Shown piece by piece: positions 1-6,193 of a DNA stretch of 6,193 nt. A program made the position numbers and the translations under genes. Each line of letters opens with the position of its first letter. The first letter of the stretch is position 1. The DNA comes from a virus. Lineage: Duplodnaviria; Heunggongvirae; Uroviricota; Caudoviricetes. Location: IMG/VR virus record IMGVR_UViG_2778261502_000008; one strand, 5' to 3'. The notes beneath the pieces are model-generated. The model made no database searches. It was given only the letters and a program-made list of their open reading frames with translations, and was not told the origin of the DNA.

Positions 1-1572
1 GCTGACGTCATATTCCAGACAGCCACGGCGGATAACGTCTTTTGCCTTGAGCACCATTGCGGTTTTCATTTCCGGCGTGTAGCGGATATCGCGAGCGGCG
101 GGATAGAACGAGCGCACGAGCTGGAACACACCGACACCGAGGCCGGTGGCATCAATCCCGATGTATTCGACGTTGTATTTTTCGGTGAGTTTGCGGATGG
201 ATTCTGCCTGGGTGGCAAAGTCCATGCCTTTCCACTGGTGACGCTCAAGGATCCTGAATTTGCCACCGGCCACCACCGGCGGTGCCAGCACCACGCATCC
301 GGCGCTGTCGCCACGGTGTGACGGGTCGTAACCAATCCATACCGGGCGGGAGCCGAACGGATTTGCGGCAAACGGCGCATAGTCTTCCCATTCTTCCAGC
401 GTGTCGACCATACAGCGTTGCAGCTCCTCGAACGGGAACACCGACGCCTTGTCGTCAACAAATTCACACATGAACAGGTTTTTAAAATCATCGGCGCTGT
501 TTTCGCGTTTGAGCTGCTCAATGTCGAACAGCGTGCAGCCGCCTTTCAGGGCGTCCTCAATGGTGACAATCTGCCGCCACTGGCCGTCCGCACAGAGAAG
601 CCCCCCGGCAAGGGCGTTATGACTGACGTCGATTTCCACGCGTTCGGCGGCGCTGGCGCGTCCCCGGTTGAACAGTTCACCCGACCAGAACGGGTAGGCG
701 TCGTGCGCCAGCGTGGACGGGGTGGAGAAATAGGTCGAGCGCAGGTGGCTCTGTGAGGCCATACCTGATGCCACCTTACGCAGCACCTGAAAATTCGGGA
801 TCCAGAAAATCTCATCGACGTACAGGTCGCCGTTATGGCTCTGTGCGGTGTTGGAGTTGGTGCCGAGAAAAATCAGTTTTGCACCGTTATTGCCCAGGAC
901 AATCGGGTCACCGGTCAGGTCAACGTCAACCAGCCGGGCAAAGGCGATGATGTATTCACGGAACACATACGCCTGCGTTTTACTGGCCGACAGAAAAATC
1001 TGGTTATGACCGGTTTTCAGGGCGCGCAGCAGCGCCTCGCGGGAAAAATAAAACGTCGCGCCAATCTGGCGGGATTTCAGAATATCGCGGATGCGGTGCT
1101 CAAGCCCGGCGCGATACCAGTGCAACTGATATTCGAAAGACTGCTCAAAGAAAATCTGCTCCAGCTTTTCGATGGCCTCGTCACTGAAAAAATTCTTTTT
1201 CGGTTTGCGACGCCCGCCTTTGTTGCGGTTAGCGACGTTCGGATTAAGGTCTGCCTCGTTGCCGGTCTGACTGTAACGGTTTACCCGTGCCAGTCGTTCA
1301 ATCTGGCGTCCCAGCAGGTCAATTTCCTTGAAGTCACCGCCGGTTTTCTGCGGTTTGATGATGAGCTGAGTCAGCCGCGCTTCCAGACTCATTTCGACAC
1401 GGCTGATGGGGGCAACGCTGTCCCAGCCGTCGCGCTGTTTCCAGCTCTGCACCGTCGGGCGTTTCATCTGCAACATGGCGGCAATCTGCGGTACGGAAAA
1501 CCCCTGCCAGTACAGCAGCGCCGCCTGACGACGCGGGTCGTGTAAAAGAGTGGTGTCTGTGGTGATGGTCAT
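1..1572 (-). CDS. P: Phage terminase large (ATPase) subunit, P2 gpP-like; N-terminus at 1572, 3' end runs off the window start (partial, 524 codons visible)
   Basis: Hand translation of the minus strand from ATG (reverse complement of 1570-1572) gives an uninterrupted frame to position 1: MTITTDTTLLHDPRRQAALLYWQGFSVPQIAAMLQMKRPTVQSWKQRDGWDSVAPISRVEMSLEARLTQLIIKPQKTGGDFKEIDLLGRQIERLARVNRYSQTGNEADLNPNVANRNKGGRRKPKKNFFSDEAIEKLEQIFFEQSFEYQLHWYRAGLEHRIRDILKSRQIGATFYFSREALLRALKTGHNQIFLSASKTQAYVF... with a Walker-B-like hydrophobic-DE motif (LYVDEIFWI). Shine-Dalgarno GGCGAGG lies 5 nt upstream of the ATG on the minus strand. It is absent from the ORF track, presumably because no stop codon falls inside the window. 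The plus-strand ORFs 418..756 and 835..1545 are shadow frames of this gene. Assignment to gpP is from memory of the P2 family. Confidence 0.88.
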   Translation of the reverse strand, partial: MTITTDTTLLHDPRRQAALLYWQGFSVPQIAAMLQMKRPTVQSWKQRDGWDSVAPISRVEMSLEARLTQLIIKPQKTGGDFKEIDLLGRQIERLARVNRYSQTGNEADLNPNVANRNKGGRRKPKKNFFSDEAIEKLEQIFFEQSFEYQLHWYRAGLEHRIRDILKSRQIGATFYFSREALLRALKTGHNQIFLSASKTQAYVFREYIIAFARLVDVDLTGDPIVLGNNGAKLIFLGTNSNTAQSHNGDLYVDEIFWIPNFQVLRKVASGMASQSHLRSTYFSTPSTLAHDAYPFWSGELFNRGRASAAERVEIDVSHNALAGGLLCADGQWRQIVTIEDALKGGCTLFDIEQLKRENSADDFKNLFMCEFVDDKASVFPFEELQRCMVDTLEEWEDYAPFAANPFGSRPVWIGYDPSHRGDSAGCVVLAPPVVAGGKFRILERHQWKGMDFATQAESIRKLTEKYNVEYIGIDATGLGVGVFQLVRSFYPAARDIRYTPEMKTAMVLKAKDVIRRGCLEYDVS

Positions 1573-1581
1573 GAATACCTC

Positions 1582-1600
1582 GCCGTGATGAATACACGGC
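1582..1600. repeat. Short inverted repeat GCCGTG-N7-CACGGC inside the 34-bp gap between the divergent P and FI starts
   Basis: Read directly: 1582-1587 gccgtg, 7-nt spacer atgaata, 1595-1600 cacggc, which is the exact reverse complement. It sits at or beside the inferred deletion junction. Function unknown. Confidence 0.35.
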
Positions 1601-1606
1601 AAACCG

Positions 1607-2656
1607 GTGCTGATTACCAATGTGCAGAGTGCAATTGCAAAGGCCGGTAAAAAAGGCACGCTGGCGGCATCGTTGCAGGCCATCGCCGACCAGTCAAAAC
1701 CGGTCACCGTTGTCGTGCGCGTGGAAGACGGCACTGGTGATGACGAGGAAACGAAACTCGCGCAGACCGTTTCCAATATCATCGGCACCACCGACGAAAA
1801 CGGTCAGTACACCGGACTAAAAGCCCTGCTGGCGGCGGAGTCGGTAACCGGTGTTAAACCGCGTATTCTCGGTGTGCCGGGACTGGACACCAAAGAGGTG
1901 GCTGTTGCACTGGCATCAGTCTGTCAGAAGCTGCGCGCTTTCGGGTATATCAGCGCATGGGGCTGTAAAACCATTTCCGAGGTGAAAGCCTACCGCCAGA
2001 ATTTCAGCCAGCGTGAGCTGATGGTCATCTGGCCGGATTTCCTCGCATGGGATACGGTCACCAGTACCACCTCCACCGCGTATGCCACCGCCCGTGCGCT
2101 GGGTCTGCGCGCTAAAATCGACCAGGAGCAGGGCTGGCATAAAACGCTGTCCAACGTCGGGGTGAACGGTGTTACCGGCATCAGCGCATCTGTATTCTGG
2201 GATTTGCAGGAGTCCGGCACCGATGCTGACCTGCTGAACGAGGCAGGCGTCACAACGCTGATTCGCCGCGACGGTTTCCGCTTCTGGGGTAACCGTACCT
2301 GCTCTGATGACCCGCTGTTCCTCTTTGAAAACTACACCCGCACCGCGCAGGTGCTGGCCGACACGATGGCTGAGGCGCACATGTGGGCGGTGGACAAGCC
2401 CATCACCGCAACGCTGATTCGCGACATCGTTGACGGCATCAATGCCAAATTCCGTGAGCTGAAAACAAATGGCTATATCGTGGATGCGACCTGCTGGTTC
2501 AGCGAAGAATCCAACGATGCGGAAACCCTCAAGGCCGGAAAACTGTATATCGACTACGACTATACCCCGGTGCCTCCTCTTGAAAACCTGACCCTGCGCC
2601 AGCGTATTACCGATAAATACCTGGCAAATCTGGTCACCTCGGTTAACAGCAATTAA
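1607..2656 (+). CDS. FI: Contractile tail sheath protein, P2 gpFI-like, apparently N-terminally truncated (GTG start, no convincing RBS)
   Basis: 349-aa ORF beginning at GTG 1607, sequence (V/M)[41 protein letters not shown]...[11 protein letters not shown], which I recognise as tail sheath. An in-frame TGA at 1589-1591 sits 18 nt upstream, so the frame cannot extend further. P2 FI is about 396 aa as I recall, and this ORF begins at an internal position of that protein (around residue 45-50). There is no Shine-Dalgarno before 1607. It may be annotated as a CDS or as a pseudogene. Confidence 0.8.
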
Positions 2657-2668
2657 GGAGCCTGACCG

Positions 2669-3187
2669 ATGGCAATGCCGCGCAAACTCAAGTTAATGAA
2701 CGTCTTTCTGAACGGCTACAGCTATCAGGGCGTTGCAAAGTCCGTCACGCTGCCAAAACTGACCCGTAAGCTCGAAAACTATCGCGGTGCGGGGATGAAC
2801 GGCAGCGCACCGGTAGACCTCGGCCTTGATGACGATGCGCTGTCAATGGAGTGGTCGCTCGGTGGCTTCCCGGATTCGGTTATCTGGGAGCTTTACGCCG
2901 CAACCGGTGTGGATGCCGTGCCGATTCGTTTTGCAGGCTCTTACCAGCGCGACGATACCGGCGAAACGGTGGCCGTCGAAGTGGTCATGCGTGGACGTCA
3001 GAAAGAAATCGACACCGGCGAGGGTAAACAGGGAGAAGACACCGAGTCGAAAATCTCCGTGGTCTGCACCTATTTCCGGCTGACGATGGACGGCAAGGAG
3101 CTGGTCGAAATCGACACCATCAACATGATTGAGAAGGTGAACGGCGTCGACCGGCTGGAGCAACACCGCCGAAATATCGGCCTGTGA
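2669..3187 (+). CDS. FII: Tail tube protein, P2 gpFII-like (172 aa), apparently intact
   Basis: ATG at 2669 preceded by AGGAG-type RBS (ggag at 2657-2660) immediately after the FI stop (taa 2654-2656). Protein MAMPRKLKLMNVFLNGYSYQGVAKSVTLPKLTRKLENYRGAGMNGSAPVDLGLDDDALSMEWSLGG... matches my recollection of P2-family major tail tube. The sheath-then-tube order is canonical. Confidence 0.9.
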   Translation: MAMPRKLKLMNVFLNGYSYQGVAKSVTLPKLTRKLENYRGAGMNGSAPVDLGLDDDALSMEWSLGGFPDSVIWELYAATGVDAVPIRFAGSYQRDDTGETVAVEVVMRGRQKEIDTGEGKQGEDTESKISVVCTYFRLTMDGKELVEIDTINMIEKVNGVDRLEQHRRNIGL

Positions 3188-3194
3188 TTTTCAT

Positions 3195-3215
3195 CCGGTC
3201 AGCCTGGCTGACCGG
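3195..3215 (+). other. GC-rich stem-loop (8-bp stem, 5-nt loop) just downstream of the FII stop; no U-tract
   Basis: Read directly: ccggtcag (3195-3202), cctgg (3203-3207), ctgaccgg (3208-3215). It begins 8 nt after the FII stop codon (tga 3185-3187). The following sequence is ttaaccctg, not a T-run, so this is not a canonical intrinsic terminator. It could be an mRNA stability or attenuation element between the abundant tube gene and the downstream genes. Confidence 0.45.
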
Positions 3216-3243
3216 TTAACCCTGATTCAGAAGTGAGAAAACC

Positions 3244-3300
3244 ATGAACAAAGAAAATGTGATTACCCTGGACAAACACAAAAATCACTGCGCGAGCTGA
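3244..3300 (+). pseudogene. E: Remnant of tail assembly chaperone gene E (gpE-like): about 10 native codons, then out-of-frame sequence and a stop after 18 codons
   Basis: ATG at 3244 with upstream purine-rich RBS (aagtgagaaaacc). Translation is MNKENVITLDKHKNHCAS*. MNKENVITLD matches the gpE N-terminus as I recall it; the rest does not look like a chaperone, and the programmed-frameshift E/E' region is absent. Consistent with a deletion breakpoint near 3270-3280. Confidence 0.5.
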
Positions 3301-3353
3301 ACGGTCACGCATCCCGTATTGAGGGATTTCGCAAGACCAGCGCACAGCTCGCC

Positions 3354-4730
3354 GTGACTGGTCATGCACTTGAAAAGGCACGGCAGGAGGCCGAAGCCCT
3401 TGCCACACAGTTTAAAAACACTGAACGTCCGACCCGTGCTCAGGCGAAAGTGCTGGAATCCGCAAAGCGTGCGGCGGAGGACTTACAGGCGAAATATAAC
3501 CGCCTGACAGATTCCGTTAAACGCCAGCAGCGGGAACTGGCCGCTGTGGGAATTAATACCCGCAATCTTGCACATGATGAGCAGGGACTGAAAAACCGTA
3601 TCAGTGAAACCACCGCACAGCTTAACCGTCAGCGTGATGCGCTGGCGCGTGTCAGTGCGCAACAGGCAAAACTTAACGCAGTAAAACAGCGTTATCAGGC
3701 CGGAAAGGAACTGGCCGGAAATATGGCCTCGGTGGGCGCTGCCGGTGTGGGGATTGCGGCGGCGGGAACGATGGCCGGAGTTAAGCTGCTGATGCCCGGT
3801 TATGAGTTTGCGCAGAAAAACTCAGAATTGCAGGCCGTGCTCGGAGTGGCAAAAGACTCCGCCGAAATGACCGCACTACGCAAACAGGCGCGCCAGCTCG
3901 GCGACAATACCGCCGCCTCGGCGGATGATGCGGCCGGTGCACAGATAATCATCGCGAAAGCGGGTGGGGATGTTGATGCCATTCAGGCGGCAACGCCGGT
4001 CACGCTGAATATGGCGCTGGCGAACCGCCGCACGATGGAAGAAAACGCCGCCCTGCTGATGGGGATGAAATCCGCCTTTCAGCTTTCAAACGATAAGGTC
4101 GCTCATATCGGGGATGTTCTCTCCATGACGATGAACAAAACCGCCGCCGATTTTGACGGCATGAGCGATGCGCTGACCTATGCCGCACCTGTGGCAAAAA
4201 ATGCCGGTGTCAGCATTGAAGAAACCGCCGCAATGGTCGGGGCGCTGCATGATGCAAAAATCACAGGCTCAATGGCGGGGACGGGAAGCCGTGCCGTGTT
4301 AAGCCGCCTGCAGGCACCGACGGGAAAAGCATGGGATGCACTCAAAGAGCTTGGCGTGAAAACCTCAGACAGCAAGGGAAACACCCGGCCAATATTTACC
4401 ATTCTGAAAGAAATGCAGGCCAGTTTTGAGAAAAACCGGCTCGGTACTGCCCAGCAGGCTGAATACATGAAAACTATTTTCGGGGAGGAGGCCAGCTCAG
4501 CCGCCGCCGTGCTGATGACTGCCGCCTCAACCGGAAAGCTGGACAAACTGACCGCTGCGTTTAAAGCCTCAGACGGGAAGACCGCCGAGCTGGTAAATAT
4601 CATGCAGGACACCCGCGTTGATGAATCACTGGCCGCGCTTTATGGCGATATCGGTAAACAGGCGGAGTCGCTCATCGGTAAGGCTGGCAGTATGGCGACC
4701 AGATTCACGGGTATGACGGGGGCGGGATAA
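3354..4730 (+). CDS. T: Tail tape measure protein (gpT-like), truncated: lacks a credible start, is about half the expected length, and its C-terminal ~39 aa appear to derive from tail protein gpU (in-frame T'-'U fusion)
   Basis: The track ORF begins at GTG 3354, but the same frame is open back to a TGA at 3234-3236 with no ATG, which suggests a missing N-terminus. The body carries a typical tape-measure core: a Gly/Ala-rich hydrophobic segment (GNMASVGAAGVGIAAAGTMAGVKLL) and a helical Ala/Gln/Lys-rich region. It is 458 aa against roughly 815 aa for P2 gpT (from memory). The ORF ends ...ELVNIMQD | TRVDESLAALYGDIGKQAESLIGKAGSMATRFTGMTGAG*, and its stop overlaps the D start (ataATG) in the way the U/D junction normally does. 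Confidence 0.72.
   Translation: MTGHALEKARQEAEALATQFKNTERPTRAQAKVLESAKRAAEDLQAKYNRLTDSVKRQQRELAAVGINTRNLAHDEQGLKNRISETTAQLNRQRDALARVSAQQAKLNAVKQRYQAGKELAGNMASVGAAGVGIAAAGTMAGVKLLMPGYEFAQKNSELQAVLGVAKDSAEMTALRKQARQLGDNTAASADDAAGAQIIIAKAGGDVDAIQAATPVTLNMALANRRTMEENAALLMGMKSAFQLSNDKVAHIGDVLSMTMNKTAADFDGMSDALTYAAPVAKNAGVSIEETAAMVGALHDAKITGSMAGTGSRAVLSRLQAPTGKAWDALKELGVKTSDSKGNTRPIFTILKEMQASFEKNRLGTAQQAEYMKTIFGEEASSAAAVLMTAASTGKLDKLTAAFKASDGKTAELVNIMQDTRVDESLAALYGDIGKQAESLIGKAGSMATRFTGMTGAG
4611..4730 (+). pseudogene. U: Probable 3'-terminal remnant of tail gene U (gpU-like), fused in frame to the truncated tape measure ORF
   Basis: The last 39 codons of the 3354..4730 ORF (TRVDESLAALYGDIGKQAESLIGKAGSMATRFTGMTGAG) resemble the C-terminus of P2-family gpU as I recall it. 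No separate ~160-aa U ORF exists between T and D. The 4-nt stop/start overlap with D (taATG at 4728-4732) is the expected U-D coupling. Confidence 0.45.
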
Positions 4731-5893
4731 TGCTGGATACGCTGACATTTGATGCAGGCAGTACGCTGACGCCGGATTACATGCTGATGCTCGACAGCAG
4801 GGATATTACCGGCAATATCAGCGACCGTCTGATGAGTATGACCCTGACGGATAACCGGGGCTTTGAGGCTGACCAGCTTGATATTGAACTGAACGATGCC
4901 GACGGGCAGGTCGGGCTGCCGGTTCGTGGCGCTGTCCTGACGGTGTATATCGGCTGGAAAGGTTTTGCCCTGGTATGCAAAGGGAAATTTACCGTTGATG
5001 AGGTTGAACACCGGGGCGCACCGGATGTGGCCACCATCCGCGCCCGGAGTGCAGATTTTCGCGGGACGCTCAATTCCCGCCGGGAAGGCTCCTGGCATGA
5101 CACCACGCTCGGTGCGATTGTTGAGGCGATAGCCACCCGTAACAGGCTGGAAGCCAGTGTCGCTCCGTCACTGGCCGGAATTAAAATCCCGCACATCGAC
5201 CAGTCGCAGGAGTCTGATGCAAAATTCCTGACCCGCCTTGCTGAACGCAACGGCGGTGAGGTGTCGGTAAAAATGGGAAAACTGTTGTTTCTCAAAGCGG
5301 GGCAGGGGGTGACGTCCAGCGGTAAAAAAATCCCGCAGATTACCATCACCCGCAGCGACGGCGACCGTCATCATTTTGCGATTGCTGACCGTGGAGCCTA
5401 TACCGGCGTAACGGCGAAGTGGCTTCACACCAAAGACCCGAAGCCGCAAAAGCAGAAGGTAAAACTGAAACGCAAAAAGAAAGAAAAACACCTGCGCGCA
5501 CTGGAGCACCCGAAAGCGAAACCGGTCACGCAGAAGAAAGCGCCAAAAGTACCGGAAGCGCGCGAAGGTGAATACATGGCCGGTGAGGCTGACAACGTTT
5601 TTGCCCTGACCACGGTATATGCCACGAAAGCACAGGCCATGCGTGCCGCTCAGGCGAAGTGGGATAAACTGCAACGGGGCGTTGCGGAGTTCTCCATCAG
5701 CCTGGCTACCGGTCGTGCAGATATTTACACGGAAACGCCGGTCAAAGTGTCAGGCTTTAAGCGTGTCATAGACGAGCAGGACTGGACAATCACTAAGGTG
5801 ACACATTTTCTGAATAATAGCGGCTTCACGACGTCCTTGGAGCTTGAGGTCAGGCTTTCTGATGTGGAGTACGAAACAGAAGGTAATGAGTGA
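4730..5893 (+). CDS. D: Phage late control gene D protein (gpD-like baseplate hub, gp27/VgrG-like family), 387 aa, apparently intact
   Basis: ATG at 4730 overlapping the upstream stop. 387 aa, the length I recall for P2 gpD. Family-typical motifs are present: MLDTLTFDAG..., GFEADQLDIELNDADGQ, FTVDEVEHRGAPD, SWHDTTLGAIVEAIA, ESDAKFLTRLAE. Position immediately upstream of ogr is canonical. Confidence 0.9.
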   Translation: MLDTLTFDAGSTLTPDYMLMLDSRDITGNISDRLMSMTLTDNRGFEADQLDIELNDADGQVGLPVRGAVLTVYIGWKGFALVCKGKFTVDEVEHRGAPDVATIRARSADFRGTLNSRREGSWHDTTLGAIVEAIATRNRLEASVAPSLAGIKIPHIDQSQESDAKFLTRLAERNGGEVSVKMGKLLFLKAGQGVTSSGKKIPQITITRSDGDRHHFAIADRGAYTGVTAKWLHTKDPKPQKQKVKLKRKKKEKHLRALEHPKAKPVTQKKAPKVPEAREGEYMAGEADNVFALTTVYATKAQAMRAAQAKWDKLQRGVAEFSISLATGRADIYTETPVKVSGFKRVIDEQDWTITKVTHFLNNSGFTTSLELEVRLSDVEYETEGNE

Positions 5894-5911
5894 TGCGTTT
5901 TATTTATCTGT

Positions 5912-5940
5912 TTGTTTTATAAGGACAAATTAACTAAAAT
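5912..5940 (+). promoter_or_regulatory. Candidate sigma70 promoter for ogr: TTGTTT (-35), 17-bp spacer, TAAAAT (-10)
   Basis: Read directly: ttgttt at 5912-5917, 17-nt spacer 5918-5934, taaaat at 5935-5940, in the AT-rich D-ogr intergenic region. Predicted start near 5947-5949. A purine-rich SD (ggaagagg, 5959-5966) precedes ATG 5975. Confidence 0.5.
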
Positions 5941-5974
5941 GACACCATTAACAAAACCGGAAGAGGTGCTCGCG

Positions 5975-6193
5975 ATGTTTCATTGTCCTTTATGCCAGCA
6001 TGCCGCACATGCGCGTACAAGCCGCTATATCACTGACACGACAAAAGAGCGTTATCACCAGTGTCAGAACGTGAATTGCAGCGCCACGTTCATCACCTAT
6101 GAGTCGGTACAGAGATACATCGTGAAGCCGGGAGAAGTCCACGCCGTAAGGCCGCACCCGTTGCCGTCAGGGCAGCAAATTATGTGGATGTGA
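5975..6193 (+). CDS. ogr: Ogr-family zinc-finger late transcription activator (P2 Ogr / E. coli OgrK-like), 72 aa
   Basis: ATG at 5975 to TGA 6191-6193. Protein MFHCPLCQHAAHARTSRYITDTTKERYHQCQNVNCSATFITYESVQRYIVKPGEVHAVRPHPLPSGQQIMWM has the C-x2-C...C-x4-C zinc-finger arrangement and matches Ogr as I recall it. The track ORF from 5912 is a TTG-initiated upstream extension that overlaps the predicted promoter and is unlikely to be real. Confidence 0.9.
   Translation: MFHCPLCQHAAHARTSRYITDTTKERYHQCQNVNCSATFITYESVQRYIVKPGEVHAVRPHPLPSGQQIMWM

Follow-up and report, generated by a model that had tools for sequence, protein, structure and literature searches.

A probable deletion seam between the terminase leader and the tail sheath gene of a defective P2-like prophage

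Gene content and chromosomal setting

The window analyzed here, that is, the whole stretch of 6,193 nucleotides, corresponds to bases 3-6195 of contig NLUV01000023.1 (66,756 bp; assembly GCA_002233275.1), which starts within the terminase gene P and is the one NCBI contig on which the exact 349-aa and 458-aa products of the genes termed FI' and T'-'U below were found. BLAST alignment of the window to phage P2 (NC_001895) gave four colinear, gap-free blocks of 96.6-98.1% identity that have P with its leader and the gene order FI-FII-E-T-U-D-ogr in common with the phage. These blocks comprise P and its leader (window 1-1602, P2 1422-3023; 97.6%), FI from codon 46 onward together with FII and the start of E (window 1601-3275, P2 17787-19461; 98.1%), codons about 37-482 of T (window 3274-4611, P2 19959-21296; 98.0%), and the last about 40 codons of U followed by D and ogr (window 4610-6191, P2 22671-24252; 96.6%).

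On the minus strand, positions 1-1572 hold the first 524 codons of the ATPase (large) subunit of the terminase (P'), an open frame that runs off the end of both window and contig. The native P leader, as located by the P2 mapping, occupies 1573-1600 on the same strand and contains the ribosome binding site (RBS) GAGG, which reads CCTC on the plus strand (1578-1581). The remaining genes lie on the plus strand and begin with FI' (1601-2656), i.e., codons 46-396 and the stop codon of the tail sheath gene, callable as an open reading frame only from an internal GTG at 1607. They continue with the intact tail tube gene FII (2669-3187; 172 aa), identical to that of E. coli ATCC 8739, and with E' (3244-3275), the start codon and first 10-11 codons of the tail assembly chaperone gene, which reads out of frame into T and ends after 18 aa. 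Codons about 37-482 of the tape measure gene are retained as T' (3276-4609), which has no start codon, the ORF finder beginning at an internal GTG at 3354. Devoid of its first 36 codons and its last third, T' continues in frame into the final 40 or so codons and the stop codon of the tail gene U ('U, 4612-4730), which supply the C-terminus of a 458-aa reading frame; that the fusion is in frame is a matter of chance. The tail gene D (4730-5893; 387 aa) and the late-gene activator gene ogr (5975-6193; 72 aa) are intact, and the ogr promoter region has been kept as well (P2 23973-24002, window about 5912-5941). Every retained frame is uninterrupted, and FII, D, and ogr are of full length. Base-by-base mapping to P2 traced each base of the window to a parent and placed the three junctions at 1601-1602 (AA), 3274-3275 (AA), and 4610-4611 (CA), with exactly 2 bp common to both parents in each case.

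The Pfam families of the encoded proteins are those expected for a P2-like phage (Terminase_6N/6C for P), and the window contains no Rfam family. On the 3' side of ogr, the contig continues with fieF, pfkA, sbp, cdh, and tpiA, in that order, and the same ogr-attR-fieF join is found in 691 of 5,426 complete E. coli genomes. Both the integration at this recurrent P2-type attachment site, with ogr beside attR, and the colinear nucleotide homology to the P2 late genes P and FI-FII-E-T-U-D-ogr place the element among the P2-like (Peduovirus) prophages. It lacks the full set of morphogenesis, lysis, and late-promoter elements of a viable phage, as O through G, the promoters pP, pO, pV, and pF, 45 codons of FI, E, and parts of T and U are missing. 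It represents a defective P2-like prophage, a well-known kind of element, located next to fieF in a chromosome of the E. coli type. An R-type tailocin or domesticated tail module was also considered and was rejected, since no baseplate, fibre, or lysis genes remain, 45 codons have been lost from the N-terminal end of the sheath, and only a truncated tape measure is present.

The junction between the P leader and FI

The first-pass annotation had pointed out that the P start codon (ATG at 1572, minus strand) is only 34 bp (1573-1606) away from a GTG at 1607 in the FI frame, with an in-frame stop at 1589-1591, and had ascribed this arrangement to one deletion that removed the divergent late promoter region, the head, lysis, and baseplate genes, and the 5' end of FI. 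All of these elements are present in the sequence, and the alignments to P2 and to the intact prophage of ATCC 8739 bear out a single seamless join with 2 bp of microhomology, which took the regions named. The presumed size of about 20 kb has to be corrected, as the deletion measures 14,763 bp in P2 (3024-17786) and 13,385 bp in the ATCC 8739 prophage (locus L007, 11424-24808). No bases have been inserted at the AA that both parents have in common. On the left, P2 sequence ends at 3023, 7 bp upstream of the point at which transcription from pP begins (P2 3016, window 1595); on the right, it resumes at 17787 with the initial base of FI codon 46. The ATG of P (1572-1570, minus strand) coincides with the annotated start of the P2 gene (P2 2993) and is followed by 524 codons that are open to the window edge. 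P keeps its leader and RBS, and the -10 and -35 elements are gone together with the Ogr activator site shared by pO and pP (P2 3057-3087).

In P2 terms, the genes O, N, M, L, X, Y, K, lysA, lysB, lysC, R, S, orf30, V, W, J, I, H, G, and fun(Z) have been lost, with the lysis cassette (Y, K, lysA, lysB, and lysC) lying within the deletion. As pV (P2 10239-10266) and pF (P2 17555-17628), located according to the P2 annotation, are both inside it, all four Ogr-dependent late promoters (pP, pO, pV, and pF) were removed. In comparison to ATCC 8739, the deletion takes 22 whole genes, among which an invertible fibre segment and a serine invertase stand in place of P2 fun(Z). The earlier statement that neither P nor FI has a recognizable promoter left was corroborated: no sigma-70-like promoter is present on either strand of window 1300-2000, and no Ogr-type site (TGT-N12-ACA) occurs in the whole window. 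Judged by its gene content, the prophage would no longer be able to make heads, baseplates, or fibres or to lyse the cell. P, FI', FII, T'-'U, and D appear to be left without promoters, and ogr, which keeps its own, would find no target promoter in the element.

A 6-bp inverted repeat (1582-1600) had likewise been noted at the junction. It does exist beside it (GCCGTG/CACGGC at 1582-1587/1595-1600; DNA hairpin of -6.7 kcal/mol, z = -2.1), but lies wholly within the native P leader (P2 3003-3021) and was not created by the join. The repeat is, moreover, unremarkable because six 6-nt inverted pairs occur within the 201 bases around it, and a role as cause or product of the deletion was accordingly rejected.

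As regards FI', the GTG at 1607 is the internal Val48 of FI and is preceded by in-frame stops at 1586-1588 and 1589-1591. FI-derived sequence extends from 1601 (codon 46), and exactly 45 codons are thus missing, in line with the roughly 45 codons that had been proposed. FI' comprises 349 aa as compared to 396 aa for full-length FI, both in P2 and among the full-length members listed of a protein cluster of 5,331 members, and FI homologues do not start at the equivalent of 1607. The region 1590-1606 lacks a Shine-Dalgarno-like purine run, in agreement with the earlier view that no RBS precedes FI'. In an alignment, the missing FI residues 4-45 pair with residues 3 to about 43 of PA0622, the sheath of R2 pyocin, and this stretch presumably includes, in view of published sheath structures, the N-terminal arm that interlocks neighbouring subunits. 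With this arm lost, FI' would therefore not polymerize even if it were made. Without start codon, RBS, promoter, and N-terminal sheath arm, FI' is in all likelihood a dead fragment.

Further deletions and the age of the decay

Two further deletions downstream in the same operon had escaped the first-pass annotation. The one at 3274-3275 corresponds to P2 19462-19958 (497 bp) and took most of E, the site of the E+E' frameshift, and the first 36 codons of T, and the one at 4610-4611 corresponds to P2 21297-22670 (1,374 bp) and took the C-terminal third of T and codons 1 to about 119 of U. Both junctions are also present, without a mismatch, in Logan contig L006 (SRR3957146), which was assembled separately, matches window 1789-5767 at 100%, and stops short of the junction between P and FI.

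Among the genomes with the ogr-fieF join, E. coli ATCC 8739 is the best match and carries an intact P2-like prophage at that site, which has the ogr-attR-fieF join in common with the window and is 98.9-100% identical to it. Compared with P2 and ATCC 8739, 13.4-14.8 kb are missing from the window where the P leader meets FI codon 46, 497 bp from E-T, and 1,374 bp from T-U; with the ATCC 8739 prophage, which occupies this very chromosomal site, as the reference, the shortfall is 13,385 + 497 + 1,374 bp and marks the element as a defective or cryptic prophage. The three blocks to the right of the first junction (window 1601-3275, 3274-4611, and 4610-6193) are each 100.000% identical to the ATCC 8739 prophage, with 0 mismatches in 1,675 + 1,338 + 1,584 aligned bases. 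The P block differs from ATCC 8739 at 18 of 1,602 bases (1.1%), all of them third codon positions (17 synonymous codons, 1 nonsynonymous codon, and no stops). The final 233 bp to the left of the junction are identical, and ATCC-specific alleles are present at 1351, 1453, and 1492. The best match to the P allele among the complete genomes is 99.3%, none being 100% identical, and the host flank differs from ATCC 8739 by about 0.5%. We read the divergence of P as the probable trace of a recombination patch inside the P gene of a mosaic parent phage. Because the right-hand 4.6 kb of the element show zero substitutions relative to an intact prophage in a different strain, its decay would be recent, with deletion preceding point-mutational erosion.

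No entry among 50,697 phage records and 5,426 complete E. coli genomes (0 in both collections) brings FI up against P as the junction of the window does, and the junction has no match in 185,579 species-representative genomes or in JGI metagenome contigs; it is represented by one short-read draft assembly. No publication that mentions the accession of this assembly or of the sequencing run was found in the literature. The junction at 4610-4611 is likewise absent from the 5,426 complete E. coli genomes. A second Logan contig (L004, SRR29027550) was tried as an independent sighting of the truncated FI and was rejected, as it encodes the same protein but its DNA is 98.7% identical and lies in another context. 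Its first 30 nt match nothing beside FI in E. coli genomes and presumably represent k-1 of that assembler (k = 31); the FI end of this contig is probably a graph tip and was set aside as evidence.

Relation to other defective prophages

A cryptic P2 remnant, D'-ogrK, was reportedly described in E. coli K-12 by Barreiro and Haggard-Ljungquist in 1992 and by Slettan et al. in 1992. We take this remnant to lie at the his-proximal P2 attachment site and to be much smaller and older than the element described here. Both are defective P2-type elements in which the right end has been kept (D sequence, promoter-bearing ogr, and attR) and morphogenetic genes have been lost, and RefSeq names ogr as ogrK in relatives. 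Unlike the K-12 remnant, however, the present element has kept P as an open frame, FII and D in full, and the greater part of FI and T; it shows no point-mutational decay and occupies a different attachment site.

A closer parallel is found in E. coli AF44 (NZ_OZ547155.1), in which an independent O'-'FI deletion has removed the head through fibre genes together with the 5' end of FI. This deletion spans P2 3721-18031 (14,311 bp in P2 coordinates) and is seamless as well, with AA common to both parents. Its breakpoints differ in that O codon about 185 is joined to FI codon about 127, with pP and pO being kept; the prophage lies at another chromosomal site (beside pflB), and its E, T, and U genes are intact. 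The flanking genes of the AF44 deletion are both annotated as partial by PGAP.

That defective prophages lose genes mainly by deletion is also said to have been found by Bobay et al. (PNAS, 2014). The same has been described for defective ('grounded') prophages (PMC6379469). The present element matches the pattern of grounded prophages, which are rapidly inactivated through large deletions of lysis and structural genes and whose remaining genes are intact, and with zero substitutions in 4.6 kb it has been caught unusually early.

Origin of the deletions

Positions 1601-1602 very probably mark a genuine deletion within a P2-like prophage, with a loss of about 13.4 kb, and the seam apparently reflects ordinary, strain-private prophage decay. 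A single break-and-join event linked FI codon 46 to the P leader at a point 7 bp upstream of the pP start, and two smaller deletions of the same type, either later or simultaneous, took out the E-T and T-U sequences. The underlying process may have been RecA-independent illegitimate recombination, conceivably through microhomology-assisted joining of the ends of a double-strand break after resection or through slipped/template-switch replication. Illegitimate recombination appears likeliest because all three junctions are seamless, have exactly 2 bp in common, and contain no filler or IS DNA; a seamless junction with few common bases and no filler or mobile DNA is what characterizes the microhomology-associated type. 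The junction anatomy, on which this assignment draws, points only softly to a pathway that depends on microhomology. By calculation as well as by simulation of 200,000 deletions in the parent, a random junction has a probability of 0.16 of showing 2 bp of microhomology or more; for three junctions out of three, the probability is 0.004, a post hoc figure from a small sample. Per junction, 2 bp of common sequence are only weakly above chance. An IS-mediated deletion was rejected, as no IS copy or end and no non-P2 base is present at any junction, and so was an engineered deletion, given that no foreign bases or recombinase scars (FRT/lox-type) occur at any of them.

Several alternatives invoke two prophages in place of one. 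The contig could be a chimera, in which the assembly has linked P from one P2-like prophage to FI from another, and the draft state of the assembly, the contig start inside P, the contrast between 1.1% divergence from ATCC 8739 on the P side and 0% on the FI side, and the Logan contig of SRR3957146, which ends at window 1789 and leaves the first junction uncovered, would all be compatible with this. Such an artefact is nevertheless extremely improbable. The parents have only 2 bp in common at this junction, and a collapse cannot create it because overlap and k-mer assemblers need shared sequence of at least k-1 bases. Both sides are, moreover, of the same phage type, the last 233 bp on the left being already identical to ATCC 8739; the other two junctions, of identical anatomy, were reproduced by an independent assembler, and contig NLUV01000023.1 has been reported in 2 samples. 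Alternatively, the deletion may have been real but have run between two P2-like prophages (such as those of a double lysogen arranged in tandem at fieF), in which case the loss would be far above 13 kb. This scenario, which we deem very unlikely, would account for a P that is 1.1% diverged from ATCC 8739 and finds its best complete-genome match at 99.3%, next to tail genes identical to ATCC 8739; yet the last 233 bp up to the seam are free of differences, and positions 1351, 1453, and 1492 carry ATCC-specific alleles, a pattern that fits one mosaic phage with a homologous-recombination patch in its P gene. P2-like phages are normally mosaic. The disparity between a diverged P side and an identical tail side speaks against a simple deletion to the extent that it calls for either a mosaic parent or two P2-like prophages.

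The breakpoints themselves may also have been specified by sequence. In the intact prophage of ATCC 8739, FI is closely preceded by the gene of a serine invertase of the Cin/Hin type, and rejoining of quasi-recombination sites by such a prophage enzyme, with its 2-bp staggered cut, would yield exactly 2 bp of identity per seam, as is seen at four of four mapped junctions (the three described here and that of AF44), three of which have AA. The true ATCC 8739 inversion sites have an AA/TT core as well (TTCTCGCATACC-TT-GGTTTGGGAGAA and TTCTCCCAAACC-AA-CGTTTATGAAAA), and a top-15 quasi-site is located 4 bp from the right end of the junction at 4610-4611. When a half-site matrix derived from the four true half-sites was applied to the eight parental breakpoints, with the core set on the common dinucleotide, the true sites scored 29-31 bits as opposed to -5 to -25 bits for the breakpoints, which fall within the bulk of the background (fractions scoring at least as high: 0.04, 0.14, 0.42, 0.95, 0.73, 0.66, 0.60, and 0.25, the core having been mis-set for the last value). 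The AAACC motif at the first junction is, in addition, on the wrong side of the crossover, and wild-type invertases of the Cin/Hin family require an enhancer together with Fis and are strongly biased against deletions. With parental breakpoints that are not enriched and do not conform to the 12-2-12 site structure, we rejected invertase quasi-sites as the main explanation and regard this origin as highly unlikely. It is somewhat less far-fetched, albeit still improbable, that the deletions were non-random in another way, either as a single complex event or by sequence-directed breakage at a hot spot (AACCGGTG). The right ends of the first junction and of the AF44 deletion both lie exactly at AACCGGTG, a motif of which the 22.7-kb prophage has only three copies on the strand concerned, and the left parents of both read AA|GG; allowing for the comparisons made, this coincidence is roughly a 1-in-100 event. 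A purely random-break model does not predict such shared ends. A single complex event would amount to serial template switching or to the repair of several simultaneous breaks; the exactly 2 bp at all junctions together with the absence of point mutations speak for it, as does the fact that the junctions at 1601-1602 and 4610-4611 did not turn up alone in any of the complete E. coli genomes searched.

Implications

The importance of this element beyond annotation is limited. FI', the T'-'U reading frame, and probably P merit the label of pseudogene or remnant, and the entire element that of a defective P2-like prophage. Beyond that, it provides a clean and very young example of deletion-first decay, in which three seamless deletions coexist with remaining frames that are all open. 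If sequence-directed breakage at AACCGGTG were to hold true, a previously unrecognized hot spot of breakage or misalignment, reflecting the preference of a nuclease, topoisomerase, or recombinase, would shape how P2-like prophages are disarmed. Together with AF44, the element hints that the same block of genes is lost repeatedly, which fits selection against lysis and structural genes.

Deletion end points and further deletions in the tail operon

Three copies of the motif AACCGGTG are present in the parent prophage of 22.7 kb, the intact P2-like element at the fieF site of E. coli ATCC 8739 (L007 24810, 25054, and 26110), and two of them coincide exactly with the right-hand ends of two independent deletions, namely that of the window, where the motif occupies 1603-1610 beside the seam between the P leader and codon 46 of the tail sheath gene FI (1601-1602), and that of E. 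coli AF44, whose P2-like prophage carries its own O'-'FI deletion with the motif at L002 ~9999. In both deletions, the left parent has the sequence AA|GG. AACCGGTG may mark a hot spot for breakage or misalignment; alternatively, the shared end point may be a coincidence, with a roughly corrected chance of about 1 in 100.

Two further deletions affect the same operon as the seam, both seamless and with two shared bases: 497 bp are gone between E and T (window 3274-3275) and 1,374 bp between T and U (4610-4611). The latter joins T codon ~482 in frame to U codon ~120 and thereby produces a chimeric ORF of 458 aa (3354-4730), which gene callers label as tape-measure protein.

A Logan contig from SRR29027550 (L004) codes for a 349-aa protein identical to that of the truncated sheath gene, FI', in the window, while the FI' DNA is 98.7% identical and, as a further difference, E and T are intact. 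The first 30 nt of this contig create an in-frame TAA and had no match beside FI in E. coli genomes; they probably reflect a k-1 graph tip and not another truncated FI.

P allele and mosaic structure

The P allele of the window (1-1602) differs from that of the ATCC 8739 prophage at 18 third-codon positions, and its best match among 5,426 complete E. coli genomes reaches 99.3%. In contrast, the tail genes are 100% identical to the ATCC 8739 prophage over 4.6 kb, and a sharp mosaic boundary is located between window position 1369 and the seam. Antisense to P lies an ORF of 236 aa (835-1545, plus strand) that lacks independent support, presumably a spurious frame within the coding region.

Cargo slot and late-gene activator

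In the AF44 prophage, the interval between the replication gene and Q (L002 2450-6439) encodes two reverse transcriptases as well as a "retron Ec48 family effector membrane protein"; it corresponds to the position of old/tin in P2 and looks like a slot for defence cargo. The same slot of the ATCC 8739 prophage (L007 5112-8164) holds genes for a DNA cytosine methyltransferase, a hypothetical protein, and a ParB-N-terminal-domain protein; in the window's strain, this region, if kept, would lie beyond the contig end.

The late-gene activator gene ogr (window 5975-6193) is intact and has kept its own promoter region (5912-5941), while all four ogr-activated promoters have been deleted from the window's element. 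By analogy with ogrK of K-12, this ogr could still act in trans on incoming P2 or P4.
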